This document shows positions 40,709 through 43,700 of a stretch of DNA of 64,000 bases, one piece after another. Position 1 is the stretch's first letter, and each line of letters begins with the position of its first letter. The DNA comes from Chloroflexota bacterium (GTDB taxonomy: Bacteria > Chloroflexota > Anaerolineae > J102): NCBI GenBank assembly GCA_041918515.1, contig JAYRVO010000064.1:23050-87049 (forward strand). Reading direction: 5' to 3'. The translations under genes and the position numbers were made by a program. A model generated the notes under the pieces. That model worked only from the letters and a program-made list of their open reading frames with translations. It had not been told where the DNA came from and did no database searches.

Positions 40709-43700
40709 TTAGAGCAGGGTGTCAAAGTCGAGCAGGCTTTCGACCTTGTAGCCAGAAGCGGCGTCGGCCGCGCGCAGGGCGGCGATGATGTCGAAGGTCT
40801 GGGTGATGGCTTCGTCCCGAGGCTTCGTCCCGAGGCTCAGCCCGAGGGGCTCAGCCCGAGGGGCAGGAGCGGCGGGGGCGAGGTCGGGCGTCGCGGTCAT
40901 TCCAACGGCGGCGATGGCGAAGAGGCCGTGCAGCAAGTCGGCAAAGGCTTGTTTGTTGTACCAGAGAACGCCGCCGTAACGATTGATCTGCAAGAAGTTG
41001 CGCACATCGACGTCGCGCAGGAGGGTCTCCAAGAGTTGGCGGGCGCGTGAGCGGGCCGGCGCCAGCGGCAACGCGGGCGAGCGGAACCAGTCCTGATGGC
41101 TGACGAGCGCCTTCAACAAAGCGACAGTGCGGTTGGGGTCGCTGACGCCCAGTGTGTGCAGGGATTGAGCCGCGAGCTTGCCCAACAGCCATTCGTCGAG
41201 CCAGCTGCGCGCGCGGACGGCGAAGTCCTCGTCGCTGACGGTCTTGCCCAAGGCGTGGCTGCAGACCCAAAGGAACAAGCCGCTCCAGGCGTTCAGATCA
41301 TCGCCCAAACCCTTGTCGAGGAAAGCGGCGATGTCGTTGGAGAGGGCGAGGCGCTCGGCGAGCGCGGGCAGTTGCAGCGCCGCCTCCAGTTCGGCGCGGA
41401 TGGTTGCAGCCAGCTCGACCAAGTCTGGCCCAGAAACCGCTCGGGCTGAGCCTCGGGACGAAGCCTCCGGTGCTTGCTGTACGATCTCGTCCTCCGTTTC
41501 CCCCCCTCCGTCCTTCACTCTCCGTTCTCCGCTCTCCGTTCTCCGCTCTCCGCTCTCCGCTCTCCGCTCTCCGCTCTCCTCGTCGCTGGCCGCCGACAAC
41601 GCCGCCAAGCGCCGCGCCAGAATGCTCACATCCAGGCCGGGCGCGACGGTCGTCTCGTGGCTGGCCGTCTCGGCGGCCGCGCGCGCGGCAGCAAAGCGAC
41701 GCACCTCGCGCAGCAGAGTCAGGATCTGGTCGGTGATGGCATCCAGGCGGTCGGTTCGTGCCAATGCTTGGGGCGAGGCATCAGCGTCACGAGCGTTGCC
41801 GACTGCCGTCTCGTAAAACCAGCGCAGCGTTTGGGCGTCGATCAGTTGGCGATAGGGGTGGTGAAGCGGCTGCAGGAAAAGCTCTTTCACGGCTTCCGCC
41901 ACGCTGGGCACGCCCCGCCCAGCCAAATAGGAAGCCAGCTGGCCGTACTGCCGCCACTCGTTATCCGGCGCCTCGCGAAAGTCGATGAAGACATGCCGCT
42001 GGTAGGCGCCAAGCTGGATGTACATGCCTTGCTCGGTGACTTCCTGGCAGTTGCGGATGTACTCTTGATCGGTGATGAGGTCGCGGAAGATCACGTAGAT
42101 GTTGGGGTCGGCGGGCAGGTTCAGGCCCTCGGCCAGCGTCTTCTGCACGAGTTGGCCGCTGCTTTTGTCCAGATAGGCGGCGGAGGTGCGAATCCAGCCG
42201 CGCGTGTCGGCGAATTTGTTGTGATACACGACCAGGCTGCGCTGATCCCCAGCGCGGTTGGAGTACGCCAGCACGTTTTCGTCCACCCCACCATCGAAGG
42301 CGTAGAAATCGTAGAGCAGGAAATTCTGCACTTCGGCGAACAGGTAACGTCGCTTGAGCAGCGGCGTGATCTCGCGCAGGTGGCGGTCGATAAGCCCTTG
42401 ATCGGGTTTTTCGTCGTAGTAGGCGCGGCGATATTCCATGCCGTATTTCTCGGTAAAGCCCTCGAACTGGCCATGGCCGAACATGGAGAGGCCGGGCACG
42501 GTGGCCATGACGGTGGCGACGCCGAAGTATTTGTCGCCTTTGCCGAATTGCGCCACCGCTGTCTCTTCGTCGGGGTTGCTCATGAAGTTGACATAACGCT
42601 TGAGGATTTCGGGGTCGAATTCGACGGTGTTCTTGATCAACTGGCGATATTTGTCGTTGTCCTCGTCCCGCAGCATGTGCATGAAGGCGCTGTTGTAAAC
42701 GCGATGCATGCCCAATGTGCGTACGAAATAGCCTTCCATCAGCCAAAAGGCTTCGGCCAGGAGAAGGGTGCCGGGCGCTTCGGCGGCCACCCGATCCACC
42801 ACCTCCCGCCAGAATTCGTTGGGTATGGCGGCGTCGAAATCGGCCTTGGTCATGCTGTGCTCGGCGCGCGAGGCGATGGCCCCGCCCGCGCCCGGCTCCG
42901 GGAACCAGAGGCGTTGGATATGGCGCTTGGCCAGGGTCATGGCAGCGTCGAAACGGATGATGGGGAACTGCCGGGCTACATGCAGGATGGTCTGGATGAC
43001 GGCTTCGCGCACCTCTGGTTTGAGATAGTCGAGCTGGGCGGTGTCGTTCCAGGGCATGGTAGTGCCATCGTTGCCATGATAGATGTAGCGCACATCCCCG
43101 GTCCAGCGATCGATGCGTTTGAACACGACGGCGGCGTCGGTGCGGTCGTAGTAGTGGTCTTCAAGGAAGACGCCCACGCGCGCGTCGCCCGACAGGTCAG
43201 GACCAGTGAAGGTGTAGGCGGGGTAGGGGGGGCGGTCGAGTTGGAGGAACCAGTCGGGGTGTTGGATCACCCAGCGTGAGTCGATGGCCATGTGGTTGGG
43301 GACCATGTCACTGGCCAGGCGGATGCCGCGTTGCCAGACTCGCTGTTTCAAATCGGCCAGGGCGTCGGAGCCGCCCAGATCGGCGGCGATGGCGTAATCG
43401 TGAAGCGAGTAGGCTGAGGCTACGGCCTCGGGATTGCCCATCATTTGCTTGATGCGTTGCGAGGCTTGAGAACGCTCCCACAGGCCGATGAGCCAGAGAC
43501 CAGTGATGCCACGCTCGGCCAGGAGGTCGAGTTCGGCGTCTGGGATGTCGGCAAGGGTGGCGATGGGCCGGTCGTATTGTTTGCTGAGTTGATCGAGCCA
43601 GACGTAGGCGTTGCGGGCCAGCAAGACGAGGCGGGGCATCCAATCGGTGTCGGGGCTGTATTGCTCCGGCTCGGCTTCAAGCCCGGCAAAGGCGGCGACC

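Follow-up and report, generated by a model that had tools for sequence, protein, structure and literature searches.

The window analyzed in this work is a 64,000-nt stretch of contig JAYRVO010000064.1 (assembly GCA_041918515.1, positions 23,050 to 87,049) from a Chloroflexota bacterium of the class Anaerolineae, and it carries several copies of a very short repeated element, found within unrelated protein-coding genes. The hosts, all on the minus strand, are a gene for an alpha-amylase-family protein (40709-44704, Pfam Alpha-amylase match), a gene for a GT-B-type glycosyltransferase-like protein (44520-45737, weak Glyco_trans_1_3 match), a sulfatase gene (57563-59029, Pfam Sulfatase) and a gene for a PhoD-like phosphatase (45793-47556), whose C-terminal tail was rewritten by the insertion. 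A further copy provides the stop codon of a xylose-isomerase-like TIM-barrel gene (38467-39324, minus strand). The repeated unit is a conserved 29-mer, composed of a left half (A) and a right half (B). Each insertion adds 27 nt (13+14 or 14+13), which equals nine codons, so that the unit is frame-neutral by length. Two subfamilies are equally sharp: T1 (GGCTTCGTCCCGAGGCTCAGCCCGAGGGG; halves GGCTTCGTCCCGAGG and CTCAGCCCGAGGGG) and T2 (GGCTTCGTCGCGAGCGCTCAGCCGAGCGG; halves GGCTTCGTCGCGAGCG and CTCAGCCGAGCGG), both with a purine before the left end and a pyrimidine after the right end. A palindromic relative, T0 (GGCTTCGTCCTGAGGCTCAGCCCGAAGGG; halves GGCTTCGTCCTGAGG and CTCAGCCCGAAGGG), makes up most of the outer shells in which other copies are enclosed, and was found alone at position 313 of locus L053. 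A 24-nt variant of the unit was seen once.

The original prediction described an element of ~54 nt in three minus-strand genes, and all three occurrences of this 13+13+14+14-nt element were confirmed. In the amylase-like gene, T1 lies within a T1-like shell (A A B B) at 40808-40863, in plus orientation and thus antisense to the gene, and encodes PRAEPLGLSLGTKPRDEA near the C-terminus. In the sulfatase gene, T1 is found at 57983-58038 (plus) in a shell with a T0-like outer A unit (CCTGAGG), and encodes PRAEPLGLSLGTKPQDEA in a hypervariable loop. The glycosyltransferase gene has an expanded version at 45324-45457 (plus), a five-fold nested composite (A A A2 [rcB' [A3 B3] rcA] B2 B B) with a net insert of 132 nt (27x4+24), or 44 aa. 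In the three hosts the elements are translated as PRAEPLGLSLGTKP(R/Q)DEA, or as an expanded version of it, and the ORFs remain open. Only one reverse frame of the four-unit element is free of stops, as had been noted, because there is one TGA per B unit, and with an offset of 14 nt two of the three reverse frames become closed. The accompanying statement that all three forward frames are open stands in part; at the 57983 copy, the outer A unit CCTGAGG puts a TGA in one forward frame.

A fourth T1 copy had been overlooked. It lies in the same amylase-like gene at 41437-41465, in the opposite orientation (minus strand, sense to the gene), as a single unit with one mismatch (GGCTTCGTCCCGAGGCTCAGCCCGAGCGG) encoding EASSRGSARA. 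The same inserted block of this gene contains a heptamer array, (CTCTCCG)n, at 41506-41579, translated as ESGERRAESGERRTESGERR. The sequences that had been taken for degenerate relatives of the element are in fact copies of T2, a second and equally conserved 29-mer that is present in many metagenome contigs. Their description as intergenic does not hold either. The exact T2 copy at 57623-57651 (plus) is inside the C-terminal region of the sulfatase gene, where it forms a 9-aa in-frame insertion, (A)RLSARDEA, and a 27-nt gap in the DNA alignment. The copy at 45823-45851 (plus, one mismatch) occupies the last codons of the PhoD gene, two codons ahead of the stop. The copy at 38452-38478 (plus, with a 1-nt deletion) lies between convergent genes, and the TIM-barrel gene takes its final codons and its TGA stop from the reverse strand of this copy.

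At 40835-40863, 45429-45457 and 58010-58038 the 29-nt B-B core is present without a mismatch, while none is expected (100 dinucleotide shuffles), and the A unit occurs 8 times in the window against an expectation of 0.4. The seven sites of the window all fall inside 38.4-58.1 kb, six of them in plus orientation; the probability of clustering this tight is ~0.004. Tandem Repeats Finder (TRF) picks up periods of 13 nt and 14 nt in 2-3 copies.

The element is an insertion in its host genes, with empty sites in a close relative. Alignment with orthologues, which the original prediction had proposed, places the peptide as an insertion relative to every homologue examined. All 25 sulfatase orthologues (41-76% identity) lack both the 18-aa peptide of the hypervariable loop and the 9-aa ARLSARDEA segment of the T2 copy. 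The 44-aa block of the glycosyltransferase is missing from 20 of 20 orthologues, one of which has flanks nearly identical to those in the window. In the C-terminal half of the amylase-like protein, 16 homologues are without a block of ~80 aa in which the sense T1 copy and the heptamer array, read as ESGERR repeats, are situated, and the PRAEPLGLSLGTKPRDEA segment is likewise missing from them.

Presence/absence polymorphism was found in L046, a Logan contig with 86% DNA identity to the window that has the PhoD, glycosyltransferase and amylase-like genes in the same order. Exactly 132 nt are missing from its glycosyltransferase gene and 28 nt from the 3' end of its PhoD gene. Deletion of 132 nt and 27 nt, respectively, from the window sequence, with one terminal GG kept in each case, restores collinearity, leaving one separate 1-nt indel at the PhoD site. 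The 27-nt T2 insert and this indel together replace the last two residues of PhoD by an 18-aa tail. At the two sites compared, the empty state has a single GG dinucleotide, and the filled state has a GG at either end. A target-site duplication longer than 2 nt was considered and dropped, as the excess of flanking repeats comes largely from insertions within tandem arrays and the lengths are inconsistent.

Synteny with L046 also bears on the host gene boundaries. Mechanically called ORFs overlap by ~185 nt between the amylase-like and glycosyltransferase genes (44520-44704) and between an RsmI-like gene and the sulfatase gene (57563-57749). In L046 the amylase-like gene begins after the stop of the glycosyltransferase gene, so the ORF starts in the window are probably too far upstream; the synteny suggests that the true start of the amylase-like gene may be near M76 of the ORF. 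Another observation concerns the sulfatase of locus L048 (2434-3981, P0003). Near gene position 1105-1128 a decayed copy resembling T1, GCCTGTCCCGAGCCAGCCGAGGG, with the peptide SRASRGSA, occupies the loop that holds T1 in the window and is oppositely oriented relative to the gene; the orientation makes it probably an independent hit on a permissive loop. A second T1-like match near the 3' end of this gene was put down to chance similarity in GC-rich sequence.

The element is dispersed through many Chloroflexota genomes, in both orientations, in unrelated genes and in intergenic spots. When one genome per species was scanned with the exact 24-mer of the T1 A-B junction, 45 loci were found in 19 metagenome-assembled genomes (MAGs), with unrelated flanks and mostly as a single A+B unit. 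There are at most 7 exact copies per representative genome. The NCBI labels of the 19 carriers are Anaerolineae, Anaerolineales, Caldilineaceae, Roseiflexaceae and Chloroflexota, in addition to one "uncultured bacterium" and one Calditrichaceae. The Calditrichaceae match (L040, 1772-1795) is the sole one attributed to another phylum; its flanks are AT-richer, it has GGGT instead of GGC before TTCG, and it could be due to horizontal transfer, misbinning or chance. A metagenome scan with a looser pattern, in which only the left 22-23 nt were fixed, recovered 103 stretches with T1 or T2, and the right end that had been left free was still 94-100% conserved. Over the aligned loci the whole 29-mer is ~95-100% conserved. 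No matches were obtained in a scan of viral contigs, which gave no sign of phage carriage.

Since nearly all matches come from MAGs or metagenome contigs, an assembly, adapter or contamination artefact has to be considered, but its probability is practically negligible. The copies lie in contig interiors and keep the reading frame of the host, and the same orthologous position is occupied in independently assembled, diverged contigs from different projects. The nesting, the subfamilies and the flank preference also represent biological structure.

Of the 74 unique T1 sites, 42 (~57%) are in confident long ORFs. The sixth frame of T1 holds a TGA and the other five are free of stops; a tally of frame usage found all five in ORFs, namely ASSRGSARG (20 sites), LRPEAQPEG (10) and GFVPRLSPRG (2) in sense, and PRAEPRDEA and PLGLSLGTK (5 each) in antisense orientation, or 32 sense against 10 antisense sites. 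Of 26 T2 sites, 19 lie between genes or at the 3' end of a gene. In sampled hosts, borne out as genuine proteins by Pfam domains on both sides, the element occupies linkers between adenylation, carrier and condensation domains of nonribosomal peptide synthetases, or lies between Wzy_C and TPR, and between Pyr_redox and Fer4; other annotated T1 positions are upstream of GAF domains and between TPR repeats. AlphaFold2 models of the sulfatase and the glycosyltransferase are confident overall (predicted template modelling scores of 0.87 and 0.86). The predicted local distance difference test (pLDDT) falls below 50 only at sulfatase residues 333-348 (T1 site), 363-365 and 456-471 (T2 site) and at glycosyltransferase residues 98-135. 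In both models these low-pLDDT inserts are predicted to lie between secondary-structure elements, in agreement with the proposed insertion at loops.

These data make it highly improbable that the peptide is a native protein-level motif, such as a linker or a signal, selected as amino acids and shared by descent or convergence. The same peptide does occur in three proteins of the window, and ASSRGSARG is recurrent in many ORFs elsewhere. However, orthologues do not have the peptide, the same DNA is read in five frames to give five unrelated peptides and is also found outside genes, conservation is at the nucleotide level with synonymous positions included, and the inserts are predicted to be disordered.

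In T1, the A unit and the reverse complement of the B unit share ~8 of 12 positions as judged by eye, and T2 has no terminal inverted repeats, while the termini of T0 pair better (CTTCG/CGAAG and TGAG/CTCA). Folding z-scores of the 2+2 elements range from -0.75 to +0.66, not beyond shuffled sequences, and for this reason a structured-RNA reading was dropped; only the 145-nt composite reaches z=-2.4, because of its inverted inner units. The whole window has no Rfam match at gathering thresholds, and near the glycosyltransferase and PhoD sites an E-value search brought up nothing but miRNA-like hairpins below threshold.

Scored per unique site, an extra A on the left and an extra B on the right occur together at 11 sites, A only at 2, B only at 1 and neither at 58 (Fisher p=3e-10). 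The outer pair is usually T0-like and the inner pair a perfect T1 or T2; in L103, L104 and L125, T2 lies within T0- or T1-like shells. From these sequences, AABB is better explained as A[AB]B, in which one unit would have been inserted at the center of an earlier unit. The center of the element reads CGA-GG-CTC, which fits the flank consensus (G/C)(A/G)-GG-(T/C) of the other sites. The 132-nt insert of the window parses in the same way, as T1[T1[T2[inverted T1-like[24-nt variant]]]].

Spread by slippage had been offered as an alternative to mobility, and the nesting fits better than it does. In its full form, this explanation holds that local 13-nt and 14-nt units expanded in place as an intragenic variable-number tandem repeat (VNTR), with no transfer between loci. 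The periods found by TRF, the likeness of the A and B units (CT..G.CCCGAGG) and the abundance of short tandem arrays clearly expanding in place in this genome speak for it, but it is very unlikely. The identical 29-mer is single in more than 100 unrelated loci of many genomes, and L046 is without the entire element, not merely without extra copies. The extra A and B units are found together much more often than independence would allow, outer and inner units come from different subfamilies, and the glycosyltransferase composite has inverted units, which slippage cannot produce.

Arrays of short tandem units, among them (GGTGGCG)n, (GGTCGGA)n and (CGGCGGT)n, also enclose many copies of the element. 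At least 15 of ~70 unique sites, with flanks read by eye, are inside heptamer-type arrays (for example L017, L060, L069, L092 and L144), and two copies in the window are 30-40 nt from heptamer arrays. One of these arrays, (ATTGCGA)x4 at 57924-57952, is in the sulfatase coding sequence (FAIRNSQFAI), 30 nt from the T1 site. The sulfatase genes of the window, L047 and L048 have heptamer arrays at the same loop but with different units (TTCGCAA, AACACGG/AACCCGG, AATCCGA), and the arrays are translated as 7-aa peptide repeats such as FAIRNSQ and SEIRNPQ. As judged from its sequences, this array looks like a case of concerted evolution.

Two longer composites containing the element were observed as well. 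A hairpin element of ~150 nt, with ends TACTCAGCC and GGCTGAGTA, contains two small internal hairpins and a T1 unit, and has T1 inside in five loci (L003 at ~1820-1965, L012, L037, L041 and L044). In L044 two inverted copies of it enclose ~1.2 kb of sequence whose ORFs lie on the other strand. It was examined as a possible larger parent of T1 and rejected, being a host for T1 and not the source of a transposase. In L120, L131, L132 and L141, T2 is found at one end of a ~90-nt unit with inverted repeats CGTCCCGAA and TTCGGGACG, which may be another composite element built around T2.

A distinct property of the element is its constancy at orthologous sites. In orthologous host genes the flanks are ~65-80% identical, with third-position-like differences, yet the 29-mer is essentially unchanged. 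In the four orthologous genes of L014, L067, L136 and L148, with flanks of ~75% identity, it is identical, without a synonymous change; in L019, L024 and L114 there is one difference, in L024; T2 is constant in L088 and L137; and a PdxA-like group has one variant. Among 17 pairs whose flanks are 75-85% identical, the identity is 99.4% at the 10 core positions that had no part in ascertainment. The neutral expectation for an identical 29-mer at 75% identity is ~2e-4, and a constant 29-mer between such flanks means that its decay is not neutral. Bystander copies, collected by a Hamming scan of ~1 Mb of loci, are mostly 0-2 mismatches from the consensus, with a thin tail of decayed copies. The constancy points to constraint or to a homogenizing process: the copies may be constantly renewed or homogenized, the same sites may be hit repeatedly, or the nucleotide sequence may be under selection. 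It also limits the proposal that the element survives because it is translatable. The frame-neutral length and five open frames agree with this proposal, but passive survival leaves the constancy above that of the coding flanks unexplained.

The same data could suggest that the element is a selected cis-acting DNA or RNA signal for a conserved Chloroflexota protein, for example one for recombination, the nucleoid, uptake or RNA processing. Its residence in genes would then be a tolerated by-product, and the constancy would stem from function and not from recent movement. The unchanged 29-mer in the four orthologous genes and in two other such groups, the identity at the non-ascertained core positions, the few decayed bystanders, the single consensus across MAGs labelled Anaerolineae, Caldilineaceae and Roseiflexaceae, and the bias towards sense orientation all favor this possibility, which we nevertheless hold to be rather unlikely. 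Copies are found in both orientations, in coding, 3'-terminal and intergenic positions, and with no consistent neighbor. Their number per genome is unlike that of uptake sequences, there is no Rfam match, and the predicted structure is not significant. Discrete arrival of 27 nt and stacking five deep at one site are hard to rationalize for a signal. As it leaves the arrival of the copies unexplained, the hypothesis complements the insertion model and does not replace it.

We think it likely that the element represents a family of ultra-small, non-autonomous, self-targeting dispersed repeats of Chloroflexota, similar to Rickettsia palindromic elements (RPEs) and small dispersed repeats (SDRs). 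The reading of the original prediction, a mobile element tolerated in frame, is borne out by the insertions relative to homologues, the empty sites in L046 and the occurrence in unrelated genes of many genomes. The units are added as clean insertions at (G/C)(A/G)-GG-(T/C) sites. As the center of the element is itself such a site, units pile up inside one another, up to five deep, and short tandem heptamer arrays are a second favored insertion context. Since the unit has nine codons, five stop-free frames and short peptide products, the host would tolerate insertions in loops and linkers and translate them as disordered segments. Copies that land elsewhere are presumably lost, by selection against those that break the fold or present the TGA frame. 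The element may be spread by a trans-acting enzyme encoded elsewhere in the genome, probably transposase- or recombinase-like, which would make a 2-bp staggered cut at GG. The uniformity of the copies might be kept by continued turnover, by gene conversion or by recognition constraints.

Several observations weigh against this interpretation. Every Pfam match in the window is to a housekeeping family (his, pur, guaB, SMC, RNase III, RsmI, glmS), and no transposase, RAYT (REP-associated tyrosine transposase) or integrase is among them, in a window of only 64 kb in which several ORFs have no match. A purely selfish element should decay, and orthologous copies instead keep the 29-mer; one consensus is moreover common to MAGs whose labels name different classes. 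Ascertainment of the loci by exact 22-24-mers makes the copies look more uniform than they are, though it does not wholly produce the uniformity. Two empty sites underlie the 2-bp GG duplication, which is indistinguishable from sequence-specific insertion beside GG, while longer direct repeats in the flanks are slightly enriched (mean 3.8 versus 3.3 nt) with inconsistent lengths. The use of the frames is non-uniform (chi-square p=8e-5), which tolerance alone does not explain. Finally, terminal inverted repeats of T1 and T2 are weak at best and their predicted folds are no better than those of shuffled sequences.

A bolder interpretation, which we put forward tentatively and consider doubtful at present, is that T0, T1 and T2 are substrates of an unrecognized, Chloroflexota-wide copy-in system. 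It would insert ~25-27 nt at GG, prefer the centers of existing copies and heptamer arrays, and maintain perfect copies via re-insertion or gene conversion. If such a system exists, it would provide a steady supply of new loop and linker peptides in housekeeping proteins, and at 27 nt its units would be among the smallest mobile DNA units described, alongside the 21-27-nt SDRs of Nostocaceae. Should the main reading, that of a dispersed repeat, hold, selfish DNA inside genes, known mainly from the RPEs of Rickettsia, would also be at work in a large free-living phylum, with a much smaller unit. Loops and inter-domain linkers would have a concrete, countable route to grow by nine residues at a time, with 44 residues reached at one site of the window. 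A specific trans-acting activity would be implied by the constancy across diverged orthologues and classes, together with the self-nesting and the exact increment of 27 nt, and clean consensus sequences open it to a search by phylogenetic profiling. The inserts also inflate ORFs, shift stops (PhoD tail, TIM-barrel gene) and create low-complexity segments, which matters for annotation and homology tools applied to Chloroflexota MAGs.

Other repeats are abundant in the window. Tandem arrays with 7-8-nt units are present at 4738-4816, 8662-8755, 20126-20208, 33100-33177 and more than 40 other sites. Many are followed by their own reverse-complement array, as in (TGGTTAT)n(CCAATAA)m or (TGACAAGG)n and (TCACCTTG)m, and such pairs would form long hairpins, mostly between genes. 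A unit of 83 nt is repeated 4.5 times with 97% identity at 14560-14929, directly upstream of a purL-like ORF (14946-17900), with no Rfam match. Inside this ORF there is an 8/24-nt tandem array, CGCCTCCT (16790-16844), between the AIRS_C match (residues 425-578) and the remaining protein; it is probably a further linker insertion in a housekeeping gene, rich in proline and derived from a repeat. Just downstream of a glmS-like gene (minus strand, 60550-62589), the region 60037-60548 holds (CAAGGTGA)x17 and then 3.4 copies of a 100-nt unit with 98% identity, again with no Rfam match.

Among known kinds of repeats, intragenic VNTRs are confined to a locus and arranged head-to-tail, whereas the Chloroflexota element stands singly in over 100 unrelated loci, with coupled A and B counts and, in the composite, inverted units. 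Uptake signal sequences and DNA uptake sequences (USS/DUS) occur at ~1 per kb and arise by substitution; here there are at most 7 exact copies per genome, in clean 27-nt blocks. Bacterial MITEs, miniature transposable elements with inverted repeats, include Correia/NEMIS, ERIC, BOX, Nezha and others (review PMC10969869). Like them, the element is non-autonomous and dispersed, has some intragenic copies with in-frame fusions, and may duplicate its target. However, MITEs have a size range of ~50-500 bp, typically ~100-400 bp, clear terminal inverted repeats and a recognizable parent insertion sequence, while the Chloroflexota element has 27 nt per unit, terminal inverted repeats that in T1 and T2 are weak at best, and no parent among the Pfam matches of the window.

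Repetitive extragenic palindromic (REP) elements and REPINs are mobilized by RAYT transposases (PMC3116915), and some REPs are tagged by GTAG/CGTC (PMC3733652). The resemblance lies in the short (20-40 nt), high-identity interspersed repeats, in the use of REPs as insertion targets by other elements, and possibly in the imperfect palindrome of T0 and in a CGTC that lies towards the 5' end (GGCTTCGTC), at 29-mer positions 6-9. An extragenic location is part of the definition of REPs, whereas 42 of 74 T1 sites are in ORFs; in addition, T1 and T2 are without a convincing stem and no REPIN-style inverted doublets were seen. No RAYT was identified in the Pfam scans of the window, and no genome-wide RAYT search was made.

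RPEs are palindromic repeats of ~150 bp found in frame in Rickettsia genes of metabolism that are unrelated to one another, according to the passage devoted to them in a review (PMC10969869, citing Ogata 2000 Science 290:347 and 2002 Genome Res 12:808). As far as that passage describes them, they share with the Chloroflexota element the dispersal, the in-frame position in unrelated genes, the translation as an extra fold-compatible peptide and the presence of several subfamilies, and in both the mobilizing enzyme is unidentified. In-frame insertion of this type was seen in four genes of the window relative to orthologues. In the terms of the same passage, RPEs differ in being palindromic, ~100-150 bp long and found in Rickettsia, while the unit described here adds 27 nt (~five times less), has T1 and T2 forms that are barely palindromic, nests in its own center and associates with heptamer arrays. 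The two are set apart by this description and not by sequence.

The SDRs of Nostocaceae, on the other hand, are of the same size class. SDR4-6, said to be the subject of Elhai et al. 2008 (Genome Res 18:1484), are reportedly near-identical repeats of 21-27 nt that are present or absent at orthologous sites, nest in other repeats and have no known transposase, and they are also said to be associated with short tandem and hairpin contexts. On these reported features, the Chloroflexota element resembles SDRs in size (21-27 nt), near-identical dispersed copies, presence or absence at orthologous sites, and nesting in repeats and short arrays. It belongs to a different phylum, the comparison being one of descriptions and not of aligned SDR sequences, and its frequent in-frame residence in genes and strict A[AB]B self-nesting are not among the features reportedly known of SDRs. 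SDRs of Nostocaceae are cited in PMC3116915 (ref. 43) and PMC5861425, and the relevant passage of the latter states that none was found outside Nostocaceae.

The element is therefore not a member of any of these classes as they are defined: it departs from RPEs in size, palindromy and host, from MITEs in size and apparently in clear terminal inverted repeats, and from REPs in their extragenic location. Keyword searches for Chloroflexi repeats or MITEs returned nothing relevant, and searches with fragments of the repeat gave only unrelated primer matches. No published description of the repeat family was found in the searchable literature, although the behavior itself is known from RPEs. By analogy, the element appears closest to the Rickettsia palindromic elements in its behavior, and closest to the small dispersed repeats of Nostocaceae in its size and nesting habit.

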